Virus record (IMG/VR): IMGVR_UViG_3300031920_000103
Span: 10,694-74,693 of that record
Reading direction: 5' to 3' (one strand)
DNA length: 64,000 bases
Source: a virus
Every line of letters begins with the position of its first letter. Position 1 is the first letter of the stretch. A program made the position numbers and the translations under genes. Below are positions 359 to 13,872 of this stretch, piece by piece. The notes below the pieces were generated by a model. That model did not search any database. It had not been told where the DNA came from and saw only the letters and a list, made by a program, of their open reading frames with translations.

Positions 359-486
359 TTTATGCCTTTTGGCAACGTGCGATCGTGTATCCAGTCAGCC
401 GCAACCGGGAACCCGAGCAAGTGCAAAATTTCCATCGCCGGATGCCCGACAACGTTGTGCAACGTGTACGCGAATTTCTTTGTCAC
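355..486 (-). CDS. 43-aa hypothetical protein
   Basis: The GTG start overlaps the methylase stop (GTGA) and its TGA overlaps the next GTG, a translational-coupling pattern. MTKKFAYTLHNVVGHPAMEILHLLGFPVAADWIHDRTLPKGIK. Confidence 0.45.
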   Translation of the reverse strand: MTKKFAYTLHNVVGHPAMEILHLLGFPVAADWIHDRTLPKGIK

Positions 487-3227
487 TCTTCGCCCTCTTC
501 GCCCTCTTCGCCCTCTTCGCCCTCTTCGCCCTCTTCCATGTCCTCGATCGCGTGCTGCACTCGCGCCTTTGCGATCGTTGCGAACATTGGATCAAGCTCG
601 ATGCCTATGCAGGCAAAACCCTCGCGCTGCGCTGCCACCATCGTTGTACCGGATCCCAAAAACGTGTCGAGAACCACGCCGTTCTCGGGTGTCACCAATC
701 GAATCAACCAACGCATAAGGCGCACGGGCTTTACAGTTGGATGCGAATTTTTGCTACCACTCAACCGCCCCGCACCCGCTCGCGGGCTGTTGAGTCCGTC
801 GCTGCCCTCTTTGCGCCCGCCTGTTACTTCGCCGGCGCTCGCGTGTGCAAAGTCGTCTAGGCCGGCTTCCTTTTCCGATCGTGGCGGCTTGGGGCAAACG
901 TAAATGTTACCCGGAAATCTTCCGAGTTCGCTTGGCGGGTTGATCGTTTCGTTTGCTGCGCCGTACTTGTCGTTATCCGTTCTGCGCGGTGTGCTCAGAG
1001 ATCGATTCTGTATCGCCGGCATTGGGTGGACAACGTTGTTGTACTTGCCGTCAGACTTATGCCCCTTGCACGGTTCCGGGAAGTCGGAGCAATGCGAGCC
1101 AAGCGGGCCACCTTGCGGGCCGGGCCAAGACAAGTCGCCCGGCATGATCCTGCAACCGTCGATGTTGAGCCCTCCGGTGCCGTGCGCGATAAAGTTAGCG
1201 GCTACCGTTTTCGCGTCGATCGGTTTGCGTGCGAGGATCGCCGGCTCTTGCGCGGGCTTTAGCGCGGTGCCCCACCCCTCATACTTCGCGGCCTCTTCGC
1301 TTGCGGGCTCCGACGTTACTATTTCCCCCGCCGCCCAACCGCCACCGCCTTGCTTATCCGCGTCAAACGCGACCGCCTGCTTTCTTGTGCCGATCACTTT
1401 GCGATCTAACCCGAGATGCTGATCGATCGCCTTGCCGACGTTCATGCTCTTTGGGAACCCTTGCCAGTATAGCCAACTGATCGTGTCGCGAATTTCAAAA
1501 CCCGCATCCTCGATCGCCACGGCTAGACGGTGCACGGTTCTCGTCGATGCGAACGAAATGATATGGCCACCGGGTTTCAGAACGCGCAGACATTGCCGCC
1601 ACGTCTCCGGGTCTGGGAGCGTAGCATCCCACGCATTGCCCATAAACCCGCCCGATGGTAGGCTGACCTCAATGCGTGCTTTTAGCGGCAACCATAAGTT
1701 GAACCAATGACGCGTGAGTGCCCCGTCTGCTCCGTGAAATACGAAGCCGACCCGGTGCGGCTTCGCCATGGCAGACAAATCACTTGCAGCCGCACGTGCT
1801 CGTACAAGTTGCGCGCCGCCAAGAGAACCAATGCTCTGACCGTCAATTGCGCTACTTGTGGCAAGCAATTCAACCGGGCACCCTCTGCTATCAAATCTAA
1901 GCATGAGGCGGTTTACTGCTCGCGAGAGTGTCACTACAGGGGCAGAACCCTCGGCCTCACTAAACGTGTGGTCGTTGAGCCCTACGTCATGGTCTCCGAG
2001 TACGACAGGAAAGCTGCGGCTACCAAAGGTGCTGGGACTAGACGCCTCCGGGGCAAACACAGGCACACTGAATCCACTAAAGAAAAGCTCAGGCACGCAA
2101 CCGCCGAGTACATTGCAGGCACCACTAGAGCCGTCTCTAGCCTCGAAAATAAAGTTGCCAAGGAACTCACCAACAGGGGAATCGATTTCGCTAGGCAAGT
2201 CGGAATCCGTGACCCCGCTACCGGTAGATTTTTTGCGTGCGTTGACTTTCTTCTCGGTGACGGGCGCGTTGTCGAGGTCAACGGAACCTTCTGGCACGCT
2301 GACCCACGAGTCTACACCGAGCCCACTTACCCCGCGCAGATCCGAACCTGCGAACGGTACGCCATCAAGATCGCGAAGTGCGCGGCTCTCGGAATCGGCG
2401 TGATAGAGCTTTGGGAAATTGACATCGGAGAAAGCCTCGGAGATTTGCTTGATAGCGTTGGCCTGCTTTGAGTACGAACTCATCCCATAGGGCGGATCCG
2501 AAACTAGCGAATCGATCGAGTTGTCGGGAAAAGTTTTAAGCACCTCAACGCAATCGCCGCAATGGATTGTGTGCCCGTCAAACTCGATCGCGTCGCCGTC
2601 AGTAAACGCCGGCTCTGTGATCTCTGGCTCGTGCGCGTCGTCAGCCTCGTTTGTCGCGTCGTTTAGGTCTGGTAGCTGCGCGGGGTCGCAAGCCTCGCAC
2701 CCGTCGCCGTTGCAATGCGTGCACGCGATATCCTCTGCCGGCTCTTCTGCGTCGTCGATCAACGGCATACTCGTAACCGAGTCAGCCAGATCCATTAGAT
2801 CATCTTCCGAGAAACCTAGGCCGTCGAGCGAGCCGTACAAATCGATCTGCTCTAAGAGTATTTCGTTTAGCCCGTCAGTGTCCCAACCACCGAGCGCAGA
2901 AATACGATTGTCTGCGATGATAAACGCTTCCGCCTCGGTTTCGTTTTTAAACGGCATACCGCAAACGATCGGCACGAGCCATTTTCCCTTTTTGGTTTTA
3001 AGCCCGTTCGGTGCGTCCTCGCCGGCTGCGTGCATTCTGCGCAACGTCTCAAGTCGACCGTGCCCGGCTACAAGTTTGCCGGTTCGCTCGTCGCGAGATA
3101 GCGGCGCGCGAAAACCGGAACGCAAGATCGCTTTGCGGATCTCGTCGTAGTCATGCTTTTTTGGGTTGCGGTCAGCGCCCTCGATCTCGTCGAGAGGCAC
3201 GTAGTCTATGCGCATTGAGTCAGCCAT
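483..3227 (-). CDS. ParB-N domain fused to beta-class N4/N6 DNA methyltransferase, with 277-aa in-frame insertion
   Basis: ParB motifs RNPKKH, LVAGHGRL and ADNRIS. MTase motif IV DPPY lies before motif I DTFLGSGTT, with HPTVKP. Likely ATG is 3227 with GGGGA RBS, just after the recA stop. Acidic (GEE)n tail. Confidence 0.9.
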   Translation of the reverse strand: MADSMRIDYVPLDEIEGADRNPKKHDYDEIRKAILRSGFRAPLSRDERTGKLVAGHGRLETLRRMHAAGEDAPNGLKTKKGKWLVPIVCGMPFKNETEAEAFIIADNRISALGGWDTDGLNEILLEQIDLYGSLDGLGFSEDDLMDLADSVTSMPLIDDAEEPAEDIACTHCNGDGCEACDPAQLPDLNDATNEADDAHEPEITEPAFTDGDAIEFDGHTIHCGDCVEVLKTFPDNSIDSLVSDPPYGMSSYSKQANAIKQISEAFSDVNFPKLYHADSESRALRDLDGVPFAGSDLRGVSGLGVDSWVSVPEGSVDLDNAPVTEKKVNARKKSTGSGVTDSDLPSEIDSPVGEFLGNFIFEARDGSSGACNVLGGCVPELFFSGFSVPVFAPEASSPSTFGSRSFPVVLGDHDVGLNDHTFSEAEGSAPVVTLSRAVNRLMLRFDSRGCPVELLATSSAIDGQSIGSLGGAQLVRARAAASDLSAMAKPHRVGFVFHGADGALTRHWFNLWLPLKARIEVSLPSGGFMGNAWDATLPDPETWRQCLRVLKPGGHIISFASTRTVHRLAVAIEDAGFEIRDTISWLYWQGFPKSMNVGKAIDQHLGLDRKVIGTRKQAVAFDADKQGGGGWAAGEIVTSEPASEEAAKYEGWGTALKPAQEPAILARKPIDAKTVAANFIAHGTGGLNIDGCRIMPGDLSWPGPQGGPLGSHCSDFPEPCKGHKSDGKYNNVVHPMPAIQNRSLSTPRRTDNDKYGAANETINPPSELGRFPGNIYVCPKPPRSEKEAGLDDFAHASAGEVTGGRKEGSDGLNSPRAGAGRLSGSKNSHPTVKPVRLMRWLIRLVTPENGVVLDTFLGSGTTMVAAQREGFACIGIELDPMFATIAKARVQHAIEDMEEGEEGEEGEEGEEGEE
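486..536. repeat. 9-nt tandem repeat (CTCTTCGCC)x5 encoding the EEG tail of the methylase
   Basis: Read directly from the sequence. Confidence 0.95.
1647..2477 (+). mobile_element. In-frame insertion element in the methylase carrying an antisense endonuclease
   Basis: Removing 831 nt joins DPPYGMS to FMGNAWD, the usual continuous motif in this MTase family. The boundary could shift by one codon. The insert is filled almost completely by the + strand ORF 1707-2471. Confidence 0.8.
1707..2471 (+). CDS. Homing-type endonuclease: two CxxC..CxxxC Zn modules, NUMOD3-like segment, Vsr/DUF559-like PD-(D/E)xK domain
   Basis: CPVC..CSRTC and CATC..CSREC; HTESTKEKLRHA; SSLENKVAKEL..VDFLL..VVEVNGTFWH..GIGVIELWEIDI. 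Confidence 0.85.
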   Translation: MTRECPVCSVKYEADPVRLRHGRQITCSRTCSYKLRAAKRTNALTVNCATCGKQFNRAPSAIKSKHEAVYCSRECHYRGRTLGLTKRVVVEPYVMVSEYDRKAAATKGAGTRRLRGKHRHTESTKEKLRHATAEYIAGTTRAVSSLENKVAKELTNRGIDFARQVGIRDPATGRFFACVDFLLGDGRVVEVNGTFWHADPRVYTEPTYPAQIRTCERYAIKIAKCAALGIGVIELWEIDIGESLGDLLDSVGLL

Positions 3228-3234
3228 AATTCCC

Positions 3235-4350
3235 CTAGTCGTCGCAAAGGTCGTCGGATGATAGATCGGTGCTGTCGCCCTTACCGGCTGCGACCATCGC
3301 GGCAGCATCCCAGTAATCCCAGTTTGCCTCGTTTAGTTTCGCGCGCGCCTCGTCAACACTTTGGGATCGAGGTGCTACCAATTTCATGTCTTTTGCTAAG
3401 TTGAGAACTGACCAATCGTTATCCCAACCGGTCTTGTACATGAACCGCAAACGCGCCTTGCGATTTGGTTCTGTCAGCCGCGTCTTAGCTACTGCGATCG
3501 TAACGTCTTTGCCGATATGGTTGCCGGCCTTGTCCTTTACCGCTTTGCCGCCCCATATACCTAGGCGCAAGCTGCAATGAAACTTTAGCGCGGTGCCGCC
3601 CGGCGTGATCTTGCCGCCGCCGAACCCACCGATCGAGTCCCGCGTTTGGTTCACGATCAAAAGCGTTGCGCGGCTAGCCTCCACCTTCGCGGTCAGGATT
3701 CGCATCGACTGCGACATTATCTTAGAGCAACCGCCTACGCGCATCTTTTCGCTGACGCCCTCCTCGACTTCCGCTTTCGTTGGAGTCGCCGCGAGGGAAT
3801 CGAACACAACAAGCGCGGGGCCTAGGCTCGGATCGAGCGCATCAAACACACCCTCGATCGTAGCGAGTGCGTGCTCTAGGTGCGTTGGGCGCACTAGGAT
3901 CAAATTCTCCGGGTCAACACCTAGCACGCGTGCGCGTTGCTTCATAAACCCGCGCTCGGTTTCGACAAGTGTTGTTGTCGCGCCGTCGCGTTGTGCTTGC
4001 CCTAGAAATTGCAGCGCTGCGGAACTCTTGCCCGCGCCCTCATCGCTAAAGATCTCGACAATGCGCCCAATCGGCAGACCACCTATGCCGCAAATGTAAT
4101 GGTCGATCACTTCCATTCCGGTTCGTAGCGGCTCGATGCCGTCAGTAAATCCGGCCTCCAAGGTAGAGATCGCGGACACCTTGACCTTGGCTTTTTTCTC
4201 TTTGGCTTTTAGGTGCGCCATCACCGCTTGCGCGGAAGTAAGTTTTTTCTTCGGCTTCTTTTTCGCCGGTTCTTTTTTCGCCGGTTCTTTTTTCGCCGGT
4301 GCCTTTTTGGTCGCCGGTTTTTTCTTTGTCGTCGTCTTTGCTTTTGCCAT
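3235..4350 (-). CDS. recA: RecA/UvsX recombinase with Lys-rich N-terminal extension
   Basis: GGLPIGRIVEIFSDEGAGKSS (Walker A), VVFDSLAA (Walker B), NQTRD, TPGGTALKFHCSLRL. Confidence 0.93.
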   Translation of the reverse strand: MAKAKTTTKKKPATKKAPAKKEPAKKEPAKKKPKKKLTSAQAVMAHLKAKEKKAKVKVSAISTLEAGFTDGIEPLRTGMEVIDHYICGIGGLPIGRIVEIFSDEGAGKSSAALQFLGQAQRDGATTTLVETERGFMKQRARVLGVDPENLILVRPTHLEHALATIEGVFDALDPSLGPALVVFDSLAATPTKAEVEEGVSEKMRVGGCSKIMSQSMRILTAKVEASRATLLIVNQTRDSIGGFGGGKITPGGTALKFHCSLRLGIWGGKAVKDKAGNHIGKDVTIAVAKTRLTEPNRKARLRFMYKTGWDNDWSVLNLAKDMKLVAPRSQSVDEARAKLNEANWDYWDAAAMVAAGKGDSTDLSSDDLCDD

Positions 4351-5952: not shown

Positions 5953-8900
5953 TTAGAGGCTCGCCCATTTCGTGCGGTCGCTAGTCATTGCGCCCCACGA
6001 TCGGCCAACCTCGATGTCTACCACGAGGGGCACGCCGTAAGAAAACCACTGAGTCATGATTCGCTCTGTGCCCTCTATGACCTCGTACAGCGCGTCCTCT
6101 TCCACTTCCTGCAAAGCGCAATCGTGCACCGCCATGATCACGCGGGACGGGATGCAATCCTCTTTTACCCACTTGACCAACTCGACCATCGACATATTGT
6201 TGTACTCGCCGGCCGTGCCTTGCACTGCGGTGTTCCACGACGCGCGCTCTGCCGTGCTGCGCTTTTGGCCGTCCGGATCTGCGAGGTCGAACAACGGGCG
6301 GCGTCGGCATTTCTGCCCGTTCCAATACGTCCACGTGTAGCCTGTTTTGTGTGCTTGCCGTAGTTGGTCTTTGATCCATTTGTCGAGGGCGGAAAAGTTA
6401 CCGAGGATCGCGCGGCGTAGTTTGTTTGCCTCCATCACTTCGATTCCGATCGATGCGGCTAGTGCGTCGTCGCTCATGCCGTACAACAGACCGAAGTTGA
6501 TCATCTTGGATGCGCGGCGTAGTTCTGCGCCCTTCTTTGTTTGGTCGCCGTTCTCGTCTAGCAACTCAGCCGGATCAACGCCCCACGCCATAATTGAAAC
6601 CATTTGCGCGGTTCGCATATGGAAGTCGTCGCCTGCTTCGTAAATCTCGATCATCTTTTTGTCGCCGGATAGCATCGCGGCAACGCGCAATTCGATCTGT
6701 GAGTAATCGGCTGAGACGAGCAAGTGGCCGGGCTCCGCAATAAAGCACTCGCGCAAAACTTTGCCCTCGTACTGTTTCTCTGACGGAAGATTTTGTAGGT
6801 TGGGATCTGTACAGTTGTGGTGGAAAATTCCGTGTGCACTGTAACTGTGGTCTGTCGCTACTGTGAGGTCGTAAACTTGGCTTTGCGCCGCTCTGCTACG
6901 GATCTCCTGTACTGCAATGCTTTGCTCTCCGCTACCTGCAAGAAATGGATAGTGTTGTGGCCGGGACGAGTCACCAACGCTAGATTGTCGATGTCGTTGT
7001 TCTTCGGATCCTCGTCGATATGGTGCACCACCATTTTCTCCGGGAGACTCGACAAGCCCGAAAATTTGGCCATTACTGCCCGATGCACAAATTCCCGCTT
7101 GCCGTTGTGCAGACACGTCAGATACCCGTAACCGTCCTCGCATACCCCTTTCCAGTTGTGGTGCGCTTTGCCGGTCTTGCCCTTCATGGGATTCTTTGTC
7201 CCGGTCTTGGAGTCCGAATAGCGCAACTTGCGTAGCGCCGTCCGTTCTGCGGTCGGCATGTTGTGTTTGACCACGTGCGAAACGTTGTGGTGCGTAGTGC
7301 CCAACAGTTTCGCGATCTGCTCTAGTGTCAGCAACGGGTGCAGTTGTCGATACAGGCACAAAACCTCGTGCTGGTGTATCTGGCAACTTGTCCACTTTTT
7401 TGAAACGCTCAAGTAATTCTCCTACGGTGATCCAATCGCCGCCGGAACGTAGGATCCTATGATCACTTGTGCAAGTCAAAACTTCCCCGTTTGCCAGGCG
7501 TATATCGTAGACTGTGCGCACGCCTTGATCGAGGTTGTGGAGCACCGGTTGCCAACGCTTCTCGTGCGTCCAAACAAGATCGCCTGCTACTACGCCAACG
7601 ATCGCAACGTACCCGCGTTGCGTTAGTATAGGCGTATCACCAACCACACAAGACCACCGACCCGAGCGCGTACCGTCTGGTTTCAGGTTCGGGTGGATCC
7701 GACCATCGGCGCGAATATGCTGTTGCAGCCCAGTCGCGTAAGTACCATCGAGCTTTGCGTACTTTCGGTGATCGATAATGTCTTGCACTACCGGGTGATG
7801 CGCCGCAAGCGTAGTCAGCACGCTCTTGTCTGTGCTCGGCTCGCCCTTCGGTGTCTTCTTTGTGATCGGTAGCTTTAGCTTTACAAACAAAAGCTCTCGG
7901 AGTTGTTTAGCTGATCCGGGGTTGATGTTGTACGGGGCTAGCCTCGCGTCGATCGTTAAGAGTTGCGCGCGGCAATATTGGGACACGTTCTCGATCGCGT
8001 CTTTTGACACACCCATGCCCCACGCCTCGACCTGATCTAGCGCTTCGGACACGGGTTGTAAAACCGTGTTCCATGCGTACGCAAGCTCAGGGTTGTGCAC
8101 GTTGATCTCGTTTAGGTTGTGGTCGATCAACCTGCTAGTCGCAACCGCATCTCGCGCGCAGTACCGAAGCAAAACCGACTTAGGCATAAATGCGTATTTG
8201 TACTTTTTCGGATCTTGCCCTAGACGAATCAACGACTCGATCGCGGGGTCAAGGTACGGCAGCAATTTCGTGCCCTGCTCTGAGATGTCTTTTGCGGTTG
8301 GCTTCGCTTTGCTAAGCGCGCGGATCCTGCGTTGCACTTCGCGCAAACCCGATGCAATGGATTCGCTCGCCTCGTTTTTGTGCCCGCCCATACCGACCAA
8401 GTGGCCCATGGTGCCTAGCGTTGCGTCGGCCTCCGGGTACGTCAGCTTTCGAGACAAGCGCGTGTCGTGGTCAATGCGGTTTACTTGCACGCCGTACGCG
8501 GAACGGATCGAGAGCGTGTCGTACTTGACGTACTGACCGCTGACCTTTGTGGTCTTATCTGCGAGCACGTCGAGCAACGGCATTCGGATTGCTGGATCTC
8601 GCAATGCGTCGACGCACCAAACCCAAGGCGAGTCGCTACCGCGCGCAACCGCTGCGAGTGCGATGATCTGAAAGTCGTTATCCCATTGACGCCCGGATGT
8701 CTCAACGTCAAACGTAAACGCACCGGCGTTCCTTAGCTGCTTAGCCGCCACCGTTGCATCTTGCGCCGTCTGCACAAGCCTTGCGCTCTCGTGCCATGGT
8801 GGCTTCTGCGGTGCGTCTTCTTGCAGTATGCGCGTCAGGTCGTTTACAAACTCGGTGCGCAAATACTTGTTGCGGTGAACGAACCAAGGCGAGTTTAAAA

Positions 8901-9405
8901 AGTGCACGGGTACGCTACTTTGCCCGTCACCAAACAAGTACGTGTACCCTCGTGCGGCGGATGCGATCGGAACCTTGCTGCCGAACAAACTTTCGATCGA
9001 CGTTCTACCTAGCGCTAGAATCTTACCGGGCTTGGCTTCCCTGATCGTGTTGTGCAAGTAGCCTCGACACGCATCGATCTGATCCGACGTTGCTACACGC
9101 TTCGGCATACAACGAACCGCAAGCGTATAGGCAACCGGGCCGGGGTGTAGTCGTTTGATCAGATCCTTTACCCAAACCCGCTCTCGGCTGACGAATGATT
9201 TGTTGCGCGAGTCCTCTTCTCGTTGTGGTGCGTCGCCAACAACGAGCAACCCACCGGGTGCCCAATTTATCGGCTCGCTACGAACGCACGTCGACCTATT
9301 CGTGCCGCCAAGATCGCAAAGGTTGCAATCGTGGTTGCGTGCTAGGGGCGCAACTGTCTCGACCGCTAAGCGCGGATCGTCAGGGTAGAGCGGTAGTCGT
9401 TTCAT
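5953..9405 (-). CDS. polA: Family A DNA polymerase with N-terminal UDG-like domain, 3'-5' exonuclease and an intein
   Basis: Exo motifs FDVETSG, YVKYD and YCARDA. Pol motifs ADYSQIELR, RRASKMINFGLLYG and VHD. UDG4-like N-terminus CNLC..GDAP..VRC..DAC. Confidence 0.95.
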   Translation of the reverse strand: MKRLPLYPDDPRLAVETVAPLARNHDCNLCDLGGTNRSTCVRSEPINWAPGGLLVVGDAPQREEDSRNKSFVSRERVWVKDLIKRLHPGPVAYTLAVRCMPKRVATSDQIDACRGYLHNTIREAKPGKILALGRTSIESLFGSKVPIASAARGYTYLFGDGQSSVPVHFLNSPWFVHRNKYLRTEFVNDLTRILQEDAPQKPPWHESARLVQTAQDATVAAKQLRNAGAFTFDVETSGRQWDNDFQIIALAAVARGSDSPWVWCVDALRDPAIRMPLLDVLADKTTKVSGQYVKYDTLSIRSAYGVQVNRIDHDTRLSRKLTYPEADATLGTMGHLVGMGGHKNEASESIASGLREVQRRIRALSKAKPTAKDISEQGTKLLPYLDPAIESLIRLGQDPKKYKYAFMPKSVLLRYCARDAVATSRLIDHNLNEINVHNPELAYAWNTVLQPVSEALDQVEAWGMGVSKDAIENVSQYCRAQLLTIDARLAPYNINPGSAKQLRELLFVKLKLPITKKTPKGEPSTDKSVLTTLAAHHPVVQDIIDHRKYAKLDGTYATGLQQHIRADGRIHPNLKPDGTRSGRWSCVVGDTPILTQRGYVAIVGVVAGDLVWTHEKRWQPVLHNLDQGVRTVYDIRLANGEVLTCTSDHRILRSGGDWITVGELLERFKKVDKLPDTPARGFVPVSTTAPVADTRADRETVGHYAPQRFARGQTQHADRRTDGATQVALFGLQDRDKESHEGQDRQSAPQLERGMRGRLRVSDVSAQRQAGICASGSNGQIFGLVESPGENGGAPYRRGSEEQRHRQSSVGDSSRPQHYPFLAGSGEQSIAVQEIRSRAAQSQVYDLTVATDHSYSAHGIFHHNCTDPNLQNLPSEKQYEGKVLRECFIAEPGHLLVSADYSQIELRVAAMLSGDKKMIEIYEAGDDFHMRTAQMVSIMAWGVDPAELLDENGDQTKKGAELRRASKMINFGLLYGMSDDALAASIGIEVMEANKLRRAILGNFSALDKWIKDQLRQAHKTGYTWTYWNGQKCRRRPLFDLADPDGQKRSTAERASWNTAVQGTAGEYNNMSMVELVKWVKEDCIPSRVIMAVHDCALQEVEEDALYEVIEGTERIMTQWFSYGVPLVVDIEVGRSWGAMTSDRTKWASL
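6814..7650 (-). mobile_element. 279-aa intein in PolA
   Basis: SGRWS|CVVGDTPILT...TCTSDHRIL...VYDLTVATDHSYSAHGIFHHN|CTDPNLQN. C1, block B TxxH, terminal HN and C+1 are all present. Confidence 0.93.
6858..7412 (-). CDS. HTH/NUMOD-HNH endonuclease nested in the +1 frame inside the PolA intein
   Basis: TTG start with AGGAGA at 7418-7423. HTH LTLEQIAKLLGTTHHNVSHV; KNPMKGK..HHNWKG; VHRAVM..VVHHIDEDPKNNDIDNLAL..HNTIH. Confidence 0.88.
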   Translation of the reverse strand: MSVSKKWTSCQIHQHEVLCLYRQLHPLLTLEQIAKLLGTTHHNVSHVVKHNMPTAERTALRKLRYSDSKTGTKNPMKGKTGKAHHNWKGVCEDGYGYLTCLHNGKREFVHRAVMAKFSGLSSLPEKMVVHHIDEDPKNNDIDNLALVTRPGHNTIHFLQVAESKALQYRRSVAERRKAKFTTSQ

Positions 9406-10392: not shown

Positions 10393-11237
10393 GCGTTGAT
10401 GCTTTCTCGTGCTGCTTTTCGCAACCAGTTTGGATCGACGCTGTTTGGATCTGCCTTTGGTGGCAAGCGCACGAAACCCGCGCGCCTCCCTTCAAAGCGC
10501 AAACTCATTGCGAGTGCGTCACCCTCGCGATGAGCGTCGCCATCAAGAGCGATAGCTAGCGGTCTACTCGAAAGCATTAGTGCGTCTACGTGTTCTTTGA
10601 TCGGCTTGCCCAAACATGCGACCGCATCGGGCCAGTAAGGTAGCGCGTCAAATACACCCTCGACAACGATCACCGGTTCGTCTGTGTCTACAAACAAGGC
10701 GTCGTGGTTGTAGAGCAAATCGCGTTTCATTCCCTTGGGGTATCGATAGCGCAACTCTGCGGTGTCAGTCCAGTCGCGGGCAACGTATCCCAGCCAACCG
10801 CCGTCAGGCGTTGGGTTGATCGGTACGACGACGCGAGCCTCGAAAAATCCCGACACGCACGCCCCGATCCCAGCCGCGCAAATCGTCTCGTCGCTGATAC
10901 CTCGACCGAGCATGTAATCCCAAGCCGGTTTGAGTGAGAAAGAATCGCGCTCGTGCTCCAAAGCAAAAAAACCTTCGGGCTTCTCGATGTCCACGCGCTC
11001 GATCGGTGCGTCCTCTGGCATGTCTGTTTCGAGGTCTGCCGGTAGGTCTGTTTTTCCGTGAATCCCGCAGCGAAAACAGTGATAGCCGCCGCTAGATGCG
11101 CACACGCCAAGAGCACCGCGCCTGTCCTCTTTGCCCGTTCGATCGAAACAAAACGGGCACCGGGTACGGTACCAACCTGACGAGCCAAGCGTTGAGTGCC
11201 TGAGCGCGGAAATAATATCTTGATCATGCTCCCTCAT
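10389..11237 (-). CDS. DNA primase (Zn finger + TOPRIM)
   Basis: CPFC..CFRC zinc finger, RVVVP, VVEGVFDAL, LDGDA and ADPNS. Likely ATG 11237. Confidence 0.88.
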   Translation of the reverse strand: MREHDQDIISALRHSTLGSSGWYRTRCPFCFDRTGKEDRRGALGVCASSGGYHCFRCGIHGKTDLPADLETDMPEDAPIERVDIEKPEGFFALEHERDSFSLKPAWDYMLGRGISDETICAAGIGACVSGFFEARVVVPINPTPDGGWLGYVARDWTDTAELRYRYPKGMKRDLLYNHDALFVDTDEPVIVVEGVFDALPYWPDAVACLGKPIKEHVDALMLSSRPLAIALDGDAHREGDALAMSLRFEGRRAGFVRLPPKADPNSVDPNWLRKAARESINA

Positions 11238-11245
11238 CGTGTCCG

Positions 11246-11476
11246 TTAAGCTGAAACATATTTTTCTCGTATACGGACATTCGCCGGCTCGATTTTTCCG
11301 GCGAGTAATGGGAACCACCACCCGCGATTTTTCGAGTTGCCGCGTAGATGGTGCGCCGGAACCAATCCCGCAACCGCCCAACGTATAATTTCAACGAGTG
11401 AACAGTTGTAGAAATCCGCTGCCTCATCCGCAGCACCCCATTGCTCTCTGCCTCGTCTTGTTTGCATCTGGATCAT
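11246..11476 (-). CDS. Small excisionase-like HTH protein
   Basis: AADEAADFYNCSLVEIIRWAVAGLVPA pattern. ATG overlaps the dnaB stop. Confidence 0.55.
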   Translation of the reverse strand: MIQMQTRRGREQWGAADEAADFYNCSLVEIIRWAVAGLVPAHHLRGNSKNRGWWFPLLAGKIEPANVRIREKYVSA

Positions 11477-13872
11477 GTCCTATCTACGTCCCGCGCAACC
11501 ATGGCGATCATGCCGTGCGCAAAGTCGTGAGGTGCGGGGCCTACTTTAAAGCGGCTTCGCCCGGTTCGGTGTTTCGCAACGTAAAATTCCATCTCGTCGC
11601 CCTCATCGCCGCGCAAGTTCAACGTTATAACTAGATCCGCGATACGCCCTTTGTGCATCGAATCAGACATATCGTTTAAATCGTGGATCTTGCTTTTGTC
11701 AGACGATCGAGTTGCTTGGCAAGCGGTCCACCCAAAAATTCCGCGCTCGTCGATTATGTTGCGCAAACCCTCGTATACAATTTTTTGTGCGTTGTAGTCG
11801 CCGCTCTCTTTAGGTGCGCCCATTCGATCGGCGTAGTCAACAATCAGAACGTCAACGGGCCGCCCCTCTTGTTGCTCGCAGTTATCTACCCATGCGCGAA
11901 TGTCGTGGTGCGTAGTCGTGAAAGGCGAAAACTCTTTTGTTATCCCTAGACCGAGACCGGGCCGGTGCGCGTTGGTCGGGAACTTTCTAGCGCCTAGGTG
12001 GTTTAGCCTTTTTATACATTCGTCCTCGCCATCGCCTGACGTGATCGAGTCGATCGACATGTCGGTCAGATTGGCTTTTATCCGCGCGAGCACTTCGCCC
12101 TCTGGAATCTCAAGCGTTGCGTATAGTACCGTCAGACCATCGTACAACGACTGTGCGGCTATATGGCTCAGACCCATCGAGTTGTGCGTGATGGTGAAGT
12201 CGCCTAGCAAGAAACGGTGATCGCCGTCTAGGGAGAACCCGTAGTAGTCGCCAGTGCCTACCGGGGCAACAGAGAACCCTGTGCGTAGCGGGTTCTTTGG
12301 CTGCCTCCTTGGCGTTGGTCTTTTCCGTTCGAGCCTAAGCGGTATGTCGTACAGCGTATCACCGACGATGCCAACGCGGTGATACGTGCCGACCTTCGGC
12401 CCGCCTTTAGCGTTGGTGCATTCTTTTTGCACGGGTGCGACGGTGGCCGCGTATCCTAGCGACCTGCACACAAACGCAATGTCGTTCGCTAACCGTAGCG
12501 ACTTTATAGTTATCTCAAAGCCAGATTTATTAGAGGATCCGTCCGAGTCAAGCAGCCCTGCTAGGGTAGCCAAGCGCACTGAGCGCGGTGCAGCGCGGTA
12601 CGCGTGGGGTATGAATTTATCGCCAGCCCCGCAGCCCCACAAGCCCAACTCGCGTACAGCCTCGCGCACGGGGTTTTTCTTACCCATGGTACCGGTAAGC
12701 TCGTGGGAGAAAGTAGTTGGGCTTGCTTTGCTCCCGTACGTTTTGATTTTCAGCCCCCACCGCTCGCACTCCTCAACCACTAGCTCGCGAATTTCGTCGT
12801 CTTTGGAAGTTAGCCGCAGATTATCCTTTAGCGAACCGTCGCCCAAAAGCGCGCCAAGGAAATACGGGTCTAGCGGCATAGCGCTGGTGCTTGGTAGCTC
12901 CCCGAACTCCACCGCGCCGGCGTGGACTAGCTTAGAGTCATTCCTGCGCCTAGTTGACCAAGTAAGCCATTCGCGCAACGGTACATCGACGAGATCGTTG
13001 CTGTACCTCTTGCCCGACAAAACCACGGTTAATACATGATCTAGGTTTACCCTAAAAGTGTCGCCTATGCGCTTTGGTACTATATCGAAAAGCTCCGAAC
13101 GCCCTACGTTTGTCCCCAGCACAACGCGTGGTGTGCTGTCCGGCCCCATAACCGTGTCGCCAACAATAACGCTCTGCACAGCCTTTACGGTGCCGTCATA
13201 CATCAACACAGGCGTGCCTTTTGCTAAGCATTTACCGTCGCCCGCGCCGCCAACGATCACACCTAGCGCTTTGCGCGCGAGCCCGCCGTTTAGCTGCATG
13301 TCTAGATCTTCGATACCTGTTGGCAGGCGTTGGATTCTGCGCAACGATCTAATCGCCTCGAAAGATGCGGGGCCTATTCGCGTGCCTTGGCTTGTGTCGA
13401 CTTCACCGATGCGCCCGGCGTCGATCATCTCTTGGCCGATTTCGTCGAGGTCGGTGCCCTTGCCGTGTGCGGTGATCGCTTTTCGCACTGCGGCTTGCTG
13501 TGCTCTGCGCTGTAGTATCGGCGCAACCTCCGAGACAACCTCATCCTCTTGCGGTAGCCCCCGATCGTCCGCGTCCTCTAGCAACTCACCGACCGCGCGG
13601 ATCTCTTCGAGAGTCATTTTGCCCTCATCGCGAAATCGTCGCATCCGTTGAATCACTAGCAACGGGTCGCTAGGACCGCGACCGAGATCGTTTGCGATTG
13701 CTCGCAGCGCTTCTAGTGCTTTGCGGCACGCCGGGTCGCGCAACAAATCCACGTCAAGAGATTTGCCTATGCGCCCCCAAAACTGCGGGCGTTGGCAACA
13801 CAGCGCTATGATCGTCCGCTCAAAGTCGAGCCCGAAACCATAGCTATCGTTTGATCCGTCTGTTAGCCCCAT
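11473..13872 (-). CDS. dnaB: DnaB-like replicative helicase with intein
   Basis: LPTGIEDLD..GGL, Walker A GGAGDGK|S split by the intein, TLE, LIVDYAD, ACQ, KHRTG. Confidence 0.93.
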   Translation of the reverse strand: MGLTDGSNDSYGFGLDFERTIIALCCQRPQFWGRIGKSLDVDLLRDPACRKALEALRAIANDLGRGPSDPLLVIQRMRRFRDEGKMTLEEIRAVGELLEDADDRGLPQEDEVVSEVAPILQRRAQQAAVRKAITAHGKGTDLDEIGQEMIDAGRIGEVDTSQGTRIGPASFEAIRSLRRIQRLPTGIEDLDMQLNGGLARKALGVIVGGAGDGKCLAKGTPVLMYDGTVKAVQSVIVGDTVMGPDSTPRVVLGTNVGRSELFDIVPKRIGDTFRVNLDHVLTVVLSGKRYSNDLVDVPLREWLTWSTRRRNDSKLVHAGAVEFGELPSTSAMPLDPYFLGALLGDGSLKDNLRLTSKDDEIRELVVEECERWGLKIKTYGSKASPTTFSHELTGTMGKKNPVREAVRELGLWGCGAGDKFIPHAYRAAPRSVRLATLAGLLDSDGSSNKSGFEITIKSLRLANDIAFVCRSLGYAATVAPVQKECTNAKGGPKVGTYHRVGIVGDTLYDIPLRLERKRPTPRRQPKNPLRTGFSVAPVGTGDYYGFSLDGDHRFLLGDFTITHNSMGLSHIAAQSLYDGLTVLYATLEIPEGEVLARIKANLTDMSIDSITSGDGEDECIKRLNHLGARKFPTNAHRPGLGLGITKEFSPFTTTHHDIRAWVDNCEQQEGRPVDVLIVDYADRMGAPKESGDYNAQKIVYEGLRNIIDERGIFGWTACQATRSSDKSKIHDLNDMSDSMHKGRIADLVITLNLRGDEGDEMEFYVAKHRTGRSRFKVGPAPHDFAHGMIAMVARDVDRT
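12181..13230 (-). mobile_element. 350-aa LAGLIDADG intein in the DnaB P-loop
   Basis: CLAKGTPVLM start, LGALLGDGS and LAGLLDSDG motifs, TITHN|S end. Confidence 0.95.

Follow-up and report, generated by a model that had tools for sequence, protein, structure and literature searches.

The stretch of viral DNA analysed here (64,000 nucleotides, positions 10,694 to 74,693 of the IMG/VR record IMGVR_UViG_3300031920_000103; hereafter the window) carries a gene for a family A DNA polymerase, PolA, that is interrupted by an intein, and the intein in turn contains an open reading frame (ORF) for an HNH endonuclease in a second reading frame. All features of this locus lie on the minus strand. The PolA precursor gene (positions 5953 to 9405) has 1150 codons and encodes an N-terminal domain that is UDG-like, a 3'-5' exonuclease, and the family A polymerase, each of which was recognized by Pfam (DNA_pol_A, E 2.7e-88; UDG, E 1.1e-9; and a match to the 3'-5' exonuclease). 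The intein (6814 to 7650) comprises 279 codons, corresponding to PolA residues 586 to 864. It opens with C-V-V-G-D, contains T-S-D-H as block B, and terminates in H-N followed by a +1 Cys, so that the junction reads GRWS/intein/CTDPNLQNLP. Cys1 (C586 of PolA), His64 of block B, and the terminal H278 and N279 are invariant among 12 aligned inteins; the Thr of the TxxH motif varies in some relatives.

The intein consists of an N-terminal splicing domain (7390 to 7650, residues 1–87), a linker in the polymerase frame (frame 0; 6928 to 7389, residues 88–241), and a C-terminal splicing domain with blocks F and G (6814 to 6927, residues 242–279). In an AlphaFold2 model based on the intein-frame alignment, both splicing domains have confidence (pLDDT) values above 90, whereas residues 88–241 remain at about 30 and lack secondary structure. 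The ordered halves match the NpuDnaE, Ssp DnaB, and Mtu RecA mini-inteins in Foldseek (E about 1e-6 to 1e-4), and Pfam matches to Intein_splicing and Hint_2 score under their gathering cut-offs. The linker is free of stop codons, unconserved, and poor in hydrophobic residues (18% vs. 35–37%), with G, S, P, Q, A, and T making up half of it. Thus, the ordered parts are predicted to form a mini-intein (HINT) fold whose halves are joined by a disordered linker of approximately 154 residues. An earlier note on this DNA, which had been made from the letters alone, had described intact splicing blocks (C1, TSDH, and HN before the +1 Cys) at 6814 to 7650; the coordinates are exact, the blocks align with those of relatives, and the predicted fold agrees. 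The PolA intein is very probably a splicing-competent class 1 intein, inserted in the motif TGR-x-S/(C/S)-x-x-PNLQN just upstream of polymerase motif A. Splicing is supported indirectly, as PolA presumably is essential and selection keeps its frame open. Compact mini-intein halves held together by a tolerant, disordered linker may also interest protein engineers.

The ORF nested within this intein (6858 to 7412) lies in the +1 frame and has 184 codons plus a stop. It starts with TTG (7410 to 7412), and a Shine-Dalgarno-like AGGAGA (7418 to 7423) is located 5 nt upstream, which is where the earlier note had placed ORF, start codon, and AGGAGA. Its product was assigned to HNH_3 by Pfam (E 1.2e-12, 47.7 bits at a cut-off of 24.8) and to PHROG 7545 ‘HNH endonuclease’ (E 9e-19), and annotated phage HNH endonucleases were matched by tblastn with a best E of 7e-25. 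NUMOD3 (E 0.0055) and a helix-turn-helix (HTH) motif (Sigma70_r4, E 0.0087) appeared as sub-threshold Pfam hints only. The residues H130, H131, N139, N143, H152, and H156 are invariant in 13 sequences, and D133 and N138 are nearly so. AlphaFold predicted two confident domains for the +1-frame protein (mean pLDDT 76.5), namely a helical part of residues 1–67 and a beta-beta-alpha core of residues 99–161, which are connected by an extended segment of low confidence. Residues 1–67 (7212 to 7412; pLDDT above 90) form an HTH-like, putative DNA-binding domain that resembles winged HTH and HTH folds at Z 5–6, scores that are not discriminating. The catalytic core, residues 108–151 (6960 to 7091), is supported by the Pfam match, the invariant residues, and a structural match to I-HmuI (1u3e). 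In an exhaustive VIA-align search the HNH core superimposed on I-HmuI with Z 6.1 and a root mean square deviation of 2.7 over 64 residues (31% identity). I-HmuI was also the top, albeit weak, Foldseek match of the whole model (E 0.28) and the sole match of the HNH profile among PDB sequences (E 0.2). Taken together, the nested ORF very probably encodes a complete HNH endonuclease with a putative HTH/NUMOD-like N-terminal part, of the type of I-PfoP3I, the characterized nicking homing endonuclease from an intron of Phormidium phage Pf-WMP3. A scan of the phage genome (a 111,873-base record rated complete) for further copies of the gene found this one only.

How such a gene could be expressed from within another is indicated by its start region. 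All 13 non-redundant sequences have a start codon at the corresponding place of the alignment (seven ATG, five GTG, and the single TTG of the window), followed by a conserved N-terminus, S-V-S-K-x-W. In 12 of the 13, GGAG, GAGG, or AGGA occurs 4–16 nt upstream of the start, against a background of 4–18% within the same genes, and the intein-frame amino acids encoded at this spot vary among the relatives. No promoter or terminator was detected between 6700 and 7800 in a scan limited to consensus sigma-70 sites. Likewise, RNAalifold revealed no conserved RNA structure near the nested start in 12 sequences, and no shared slippery sequence was found. As neither a sigma-70-like promoter nor a conserved RNA structure was found, the nested gene probably is read from the polymerase mRNA, and most likely it is translated there from its own Shine-Dalgarno sequence and start codon. 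The start signals thus fit the independent translation that the earlier note had proposed. Alternatively, the endonuclease might be produced by programmed +1 frameshifting, as a fusion to the N-extein and the N-terminal half of the intein. Ribosomes translating PolA do cross this site, overlapping phage genes sometimes use recoding, and in relatives the +1 frame is open for 5–22 codons upstream of the nested start. In the window, however, the +1 frame is closed by a TAG that lies three codons upstream of the TTG, which renders a frameshift route to the full HNH protein unlikely. The fixed position of the start codon, the Shine-Dalgarno-like motif in 12 sequences, and the lack of a shared slippery sequence or conserved RNA structure also speak against recoding, and the fusion would come at the price of a truncated, useless polymerase. 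Frameshifting is thus a very improbable source of the protein, and translation from the internal start is preferred.

Both frames of the overlap are maintained, apparently for different reasons. Across the 184 codons shared by intein and HNH gene, frame 0 contains no stop codon in the window and the third frame contains 10. When the HNH codons of the window were shuffled synonymously, frame 0 stayed open in just 0.1% of the trials. It is open in 13 of 13 sequences, against a shuffle expectation of at most 0.11 and mostly at most 0.005 per sequence (third frame: 9–18 stops), although the sequences in the selection tests are mutually related and these probabilities are consequently not independent. 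Eleven non-redundant sequences were aligned by codon, and mean pairwise identity was calculated for each codon position. Throughout the exteins and the two splicing domains, conservation is lowest at the third position of frame 0 (0.35–0.41). In the overlap it is lowest at the first position of frame 0, which equals the third position of the HNH frame (0.45 vs. 0.62 and 0.67). This signal flips at the HNH start codon and flips back about 20 codons before the HNH stop, where the C-terminal splicing domain begins. The start of that domain overlaps the last 23 or so HNH codons, where selection is dominated by the intein frame. At the amino acid level, the overlap is 54% identical when read in the HNH frame, compared to 31% for the intein frame and 32% for the third, unused frame, and gapless pairs with about 150 differences contain 66–70 synonymous changes in the HNH frame vs. 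10–14 in the intein frame. The earlier note's impression that the middle of the intein is unconserved in its own frame is therefore borne out, since its identity is at the level of the third frame and the segment is predicted to be disordered. The same note would have given up its reading had the HNH frame lacked conservation in relatives, and this frame turned out to be both conserved and open throughout. Because the HNH frame is conserved and frame 0 is open against the shuffle expectation, two distinct constraints are evidently at work, with the HNH frame being selected as a protein and the intein frame only to remain open. The locus would thus represent a natural case of sustained dual coding over about 550 nt in which one frame is selected solely against stop codons. 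It also illustrates that gene callers overlook the nested gene where the full polymerase ORF is present.

The layout is by no means confined to the window. Scans with the HNH protein and with alignment patterns retrieved 6 viral, 1 genome, and 14 metagenome loci (48–64% protein identity). In all 21, the HNH frame is open for 180–205 codons inside a long PolA frame one base behind, and the third frame is rich in stops. A large protein collection contributed 32 further clusters of called proteins (44–65% identity, about 180–183 amino acids). Three of these, including the most distant one (44%), were looked up at the DNA level and show the same nesting. Altogether, each relative examined as DNA shows the nested layout (about 20 non-redundant sequences, 44–65% identical; these are the 21 loci plus L036, L038, L039, and L041–L043). 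A blastn search of the region against 50,697 phage records gave no match, and cultured relatives were detectable only at the protein level. A profile of the intein frame, compared with 1.84 billion representative proteins, matched 284 clusters at E ≤1e-30. Among the best 150 of these, 139 contain a full-length intein (267–287 amino acids) at the same PolA site, with Ser (101) or Cys (38) as +1 residue and the HN terminus in 136. Three distant members of this profile family were inspected at the DNA level, and in each of them the nested HNH ORF is intact and matches the HNH profile at E 1e-61 to 1e-81.

These numbers bear on the trivial explanation that an in-frame HNH intein was split between two frames by two compensating frameshift errors. 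The source is indeed a metagenome assembly, apparently of marine sediment. Yet the same two frames with the same boundaries recur in over 20 independent contigs, which stem from different samples and assemblers, the frame-0 linker is stop-free against expectation, and the HNH ORF possesses its own start and stop. An artefact of assembly or sequencing is hence hardly conceivable, and this reading was rejected on account of the many independent contigs with the same layout.

All inteins of the family occupy one polymerase site, after TGR-x-S and before (C/S)-x-x-PNLQN, and the intein family is found in polymerases of quite different architecture. The two closest PolAs (73 and 69% identity) lack the intein, and their contigs are syntenic with respect to the gp32, RecA, and methylase genes. 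These intein-free proteins, P0003 and P0004, read GRWS-CT(D/Q)PNLQNLP without interruption and thereby give the precise junction. Most of the approximately 50 members of the UDG-PolA family are without this intein, whose distribution is sporadic. Identity is higher in the HNH protein (54%) and the splicing domain (46%) than in the flanking exteins (33 and 29%), and the conservation of HNH and splicing domain co-varies (rho 0.63), in keeping with movement of the two as one unit. The earlier note had suggested a search for related PolA inteins with and without the middle segment, and both kinds were encountered. Besides the full nested inteins there are two shortened forms. P0244 (L044:1390–1854) has a 155-residue intein at the same site, and its +1 frame consists of the first 12 or so HNH codons fused to the last 45 or so; since both frames stay in register, the deletion must have been a multiple of three. 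P0208 has a mini-intein of 134 residues at the same site. The coexistence of empty sites, full elements, and mini-inteins is as the homing cycle predicts. A layout hitherto treated as a rare oddity would then form, in the polymerases of environmental phages, a large family that is old and still mobile, with empty sites, full elements, and deleted mini-inteins representing every stage of that cycle. Loci L009 and L010 contain near-identical nested HNH genes that differ by 3 nt; L009 has H131R in the V-H-H-I-D motif, at a His that is invariant elsewhere, and may be a freshly inactivated copy.

The origin of the endonuclease can be traced beyond the nested clade. Its nearest relatives there (33–44% identity) are HNH genes of seven cultured phages, where they separate PolA into two halves. 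Annotations or publications identify three of these insertions as group I introns (Providencia phage PS3, Escherichia phage PhAPEC7, and Phormidium phage Pf-WMP3 with I-PfoP3I). The other four are found in phiL7, Xanthomonas phage L13.2, an Acinetobacter phage, and Vibrio phage MJW, and the phiL7 insertion has been described as an intron (Kong et al., 2012, PMC3428280). The nested HNH protein of the window (P0002) shares 33% identity with I-PfoP3I over 116 residues (BLASTP, E 5e-12), 37% with gp45 of phiL7 (tblastn, E 8e-23), and 37–44% with HNH genes between PolA halves. In six of the seven phages, exon 1 ends in or shortly after TGRLS-S-S-x-P(NL), 4–10 codons downstream of the intein site. 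The exon-1 frame of PhAPEC7 departs from the motif after ...RLSASEP, and the junction is only approximately placed. A group I intron was also considered for the window locus itself and was rejected, as the host frame reads through without a stop and the intein blocks are present; in the intron-bearing relatives, by contrast, exon 1 runs straight into a stop codon.

A maximum-likelihood tree was built from 19 nested proteins and 7 intron-borne ones, and a single branch with 100/99 support separates the two groups. This topology is compatible with a single capture event, and being unrooted it gives no direction. The earlier note had proposed that a free-standing HNH gene invaded a mini-intein. 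The capture of a pre-existing gene is supported, because the nearest non-nested relatives are separate genes, mini-inteins exist at the same site, and one branch of the tree separates the clades. The donor, in contrast, would not have been a generic free-standing gene, since the nearest candidates are intron-borne and of the I-PfoP3I type. Nor does the invasion appear to have happened in this phage; it would be ancient and have founded a large family. The likely donor lineage is intron-associated and PolA-specific. The nested clade has an identifiable sister group, the intron-borne endonucleases at a neighbouring position of the same gene, and offers a testable case of one endonuclease lineage shared by RNA-splicing and protein-splicing elements.

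The kinship with I-PfoP3I also suggests where the nested enzyme may cut. I-PfoP3I recognizes positions -3 to +11 around its intron site. The homologous 14 bp of the window match this site in 10 of 14 positions and lie 10–23 nt inside the C-extein. By this homology, the first 10 codons of the C-extein (C-T-D-P-N-L-Q-N-L-P, 6784 to 6813, minus strand) are the likely target region. As this target would lie wholly in the C-extein, it would also be present in intein-containing alleles.

We consider it highly probable that these observations reflect a class 1 PolA intein with a dual-coding endonuclease slot, which is read as a linker in frame 0 and as an HNH gene in the +1 frame. According to this model, frame 0 would be kept stop-free to allow synthesis and splicing of the PolA precursor. 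During co-infection, the nested endonuclease would nick intein-free PolA alleles in or near the DNA coding for PNLQN, recombinational repair would copy intein and nested gene together, and protein splicing would restore the polymerase. The element probably goes back to a single ancient event in which an intein captured a PolA-targeting endonuclease gene, and later it may have spread among very different phage polymerases. Apart from the mutual relatedness of the sequences in the selection tests, three points weigh against this model. The start codon of the window copy is TTG, which is the weakest of the three used in the family, and the C-terminal tail of its HNH protein strays from the family consensus. 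Furthermore, if recognition is like that of I-PfoP3I, the occupied allele would stay cuttable, and the element would face a problem of self-immunity.

The first two points would fit a silent relic, that is, a nested ORF no longer translated in this phage and an intein that persists by vertical descent. Relatives with ATG or GTG account for the other 12 of the 13 sequences, and degraded members of the family are known (the internal deletion in P0244 and H131R in L009). On the other hand, the window ORF is of full length and retains every invariant catalytic or structural residue, its AGGAGA is optimally spaced from the start, and frame-specific purifying selection is evident throughout the family, also in pairs of which the window sequence is one member. 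A relic is therefore unlikely. The third point leads to another possibility, namely that the HNH protein was domesticated for a role other than homing, for example competition against co-infecting phages that have other PolA alleles or introns, or DNA processing, and uses the intein as a safe harbour. The overlap has been kept in at least 139 clusters (50% identity) and thus for longer than would be expected from a simple homing cycle, the likely target is outside the intein junction, and related intron enzymes such as I-HmuI cut both intron-containing and intron-free alleles (PMC3428280). Against this stand the binding of the whole clade to one site in one gene, the frequency of intein-free alleles among close relatives, and the occurrence of deletion derivatives, as expected of a selfish homing cycle. 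Such a domestication seems quite unlikely, and we favour the homing intein with a dual-coding slot.

The intein described here is not the only selfish element in this part of PolA. Five residues upstream (at a site equivalent to approximately window positions 7666–7680), related UDG-PolAs harbour a second type of intein with the sequence DG-x-E/C-M-P-A-G-E ... T-H-N/TGR-x-S. This type contains an in-frame NUMOD4-HNH_3 endonuclease in P0038, P0046, and P0049 and is a mini-intein of 131 residues in P0047. In a BLASTP comparison its HNH domain showed no match to P0002 at E ≤0.01. Both types occur in tandem in P0208 (1436 residues), where they occupy residues 387–637 and 643–776 and are spaced by T-G-R-L-S; the first has an in-frame HNH domain, and the second is the mini-intein of the nested family mentioned above. 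Because nested-type inteins, inteins with an in-frame HNH domain, and introns cluster there, this short PolA stretch is, as judged from the sequences compared, a hotspot where selfish elements of at least three kinds insert. One PolA-specific HNH lineage may even serve both group I introns, inserted after ...S-x-P(NL), and inteins 12–18 nt upstream at the same target, an idea that we regard as possible yet somewhat doubtful. If it is correct and the PNLQN-coding DNA is still recognized, the target outlives the insertion of the intein, and intein, intron, and neighbouring intein would compete or collaborate. The long-lived overlap would then be a stable design instead of a brief stage between invasion and in-frame fusion.

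Endonuclease genes in an alternative frame of an intein, or antisense to it, have been described and were called rare (bioRxiv 10.1101/2025.01.02.630785). The literature thus agrees with the earlier note, which had called alternate-frame endonucleases in phage inteins reported but uncommon. An out-of-frame endonuclease in the DnaX intein of Synechocystis goes back to Gorbalenya (1998), as cited in the same preprint and in bioRxiv 10.64898/2026.09.14.751524. Inteins of actinophages contain LAGLIDADG and Vsr-like genes in antisense orientation and Endo VII-like genes in frame 3 (Gosselin, Arsenault and Gogarten, bioRxiv 10.1101/2025.01.02.630785). Those with the frame-3 genes share with the PolA intein the class 1 type, a slot that is unstructured in the intein frame, and a same-strand, other-frame nuclease of the beta-beta-alpha-Me type that is related to free-standing phage genes. 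Their authors propose the invasion of an intein by an endonuclease gene and report signs of continued horizontal transfer. There, however, the nuclease is Endo VII-like (IPR004211), is encoded in frame 3, and occurs in cultured actinophages, whereas HNH_3 in the +1 frame is found here. The host genes given there are those for terminase, minor capsid protein, thymidylate synthase, and DNA polymerase (named as DNA polymerase III alpha), compared to PolA in this study. Unlike the actinophage nucleases as described there, the HNH_3 protein has an HTH/NUMOD-like N-terminal part, and its nearest non-nested relatives are intron-borne. Moreover, such layouts are called extremely rare in that preprint, and the PolA family alone comprises at least 139 clusters.

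A cyanobacterial DnaX intein resembles the PolA intein in its overlapping-frame endonuclease, for which purifying selection was reported with a relaxed intein frame, in the coexistence of mini-intein and intein-free alleles, and in the secondary invasion proposed to explain it (Phillips, DeSimone and Gogarten, bioRxiv 10.64898/2026.09.14.751524). It differs by its LAGLIDADG endonuclease, its cellular host gene, and the +2 frame, and a connection to an intron endonuclease at a site nearby was not reported. I-PfoP3I and gp45 of phiL7, encoded in group IA2 introns (Kong et al., 2012, PMC3428280), have the same order of an N-terminal DNA-binding part, which is putative in the nested protein, and a C-terminal HNH domain, and their introns reside in the same host gene and motif, 4–6 codons downstream of the intein site. 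There, the endonuclease is a non-overlapping ORF in a self-splicing RNA intron, whereas here it is overprinted on the linker of an intein. An insert in the methylase of ShiLan (PMC11855218) is similar in that the HNH gene is in a shifted frame, the host frame reads through, the gene has its own start a few bases into the insert, and its distribution is disjunct. That insert has no splicing domains and stays in the mature protein, unlike the insert in PolA, which the intact intein would remove. Finally, the inteins of P0038, P0046, and P0049 share the UDG-PolA family and an HNH_3 nuclease and lie 5 residues apart from the nested type, and they differ in that their NUMOD4-HNH_3 part is translated in frame as a portion of the intein. 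In the literature searched, whose coverage is incomplete, neither a PolA intein with an HNH_3 gene in the +1 frame nor a kinship of such a nested gene to PolA intron endonucleases was found described. Hence, out-of-frame intein endonucleases appear to be a known, rare phenomenon, and it is the PolA/HNH_3 version in the +1 frame with its kinship to introns for which we found no description. Thus far, out-of-frame endonucleases have been taken as support for the model that the splicing element came first and was later invaded by the endonuclease.

Some observations concern other inserts and neighbouring genes. In the DnaB-like helicase gene of the window (11473 to 13872, minus strand), the earlier note had recognized an in-frame LAGLIDADG intein, and the gene indeed contains a canonical one (Hom_end_hint, E 4e-15; LAGLIDADG_3; Hom_end). 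The DNA methylase gene of the window (483 to 3308, minus strand) has 941 codons; the methylase of the syntenic, intein-free locus L034 was called with 642 residues and runs off the end of that locus. P0105, the protein of locus L036, is recorded on 13 contigs, 10 of which are 50–200 kb long. One long P0105 contig was inspected and ends in the PolA N-extein, about 700 nt upstream of the nested HNH gene, and if the other contigs end alike, a recurrent assembly break or a genome end may be located there. A distant HNH gene (31% identity) at L013:1700–2440 follows just after a functionally unassigned gene in what appears to be a phage structural-gene region. A second ORF that overlaps this HNH gene ends with a copy of the last 19 codons of the neighbouring gene, and the locus gives the impression that an endonuclease gene inserted there and in doing so duplicated the 3' end of its target.

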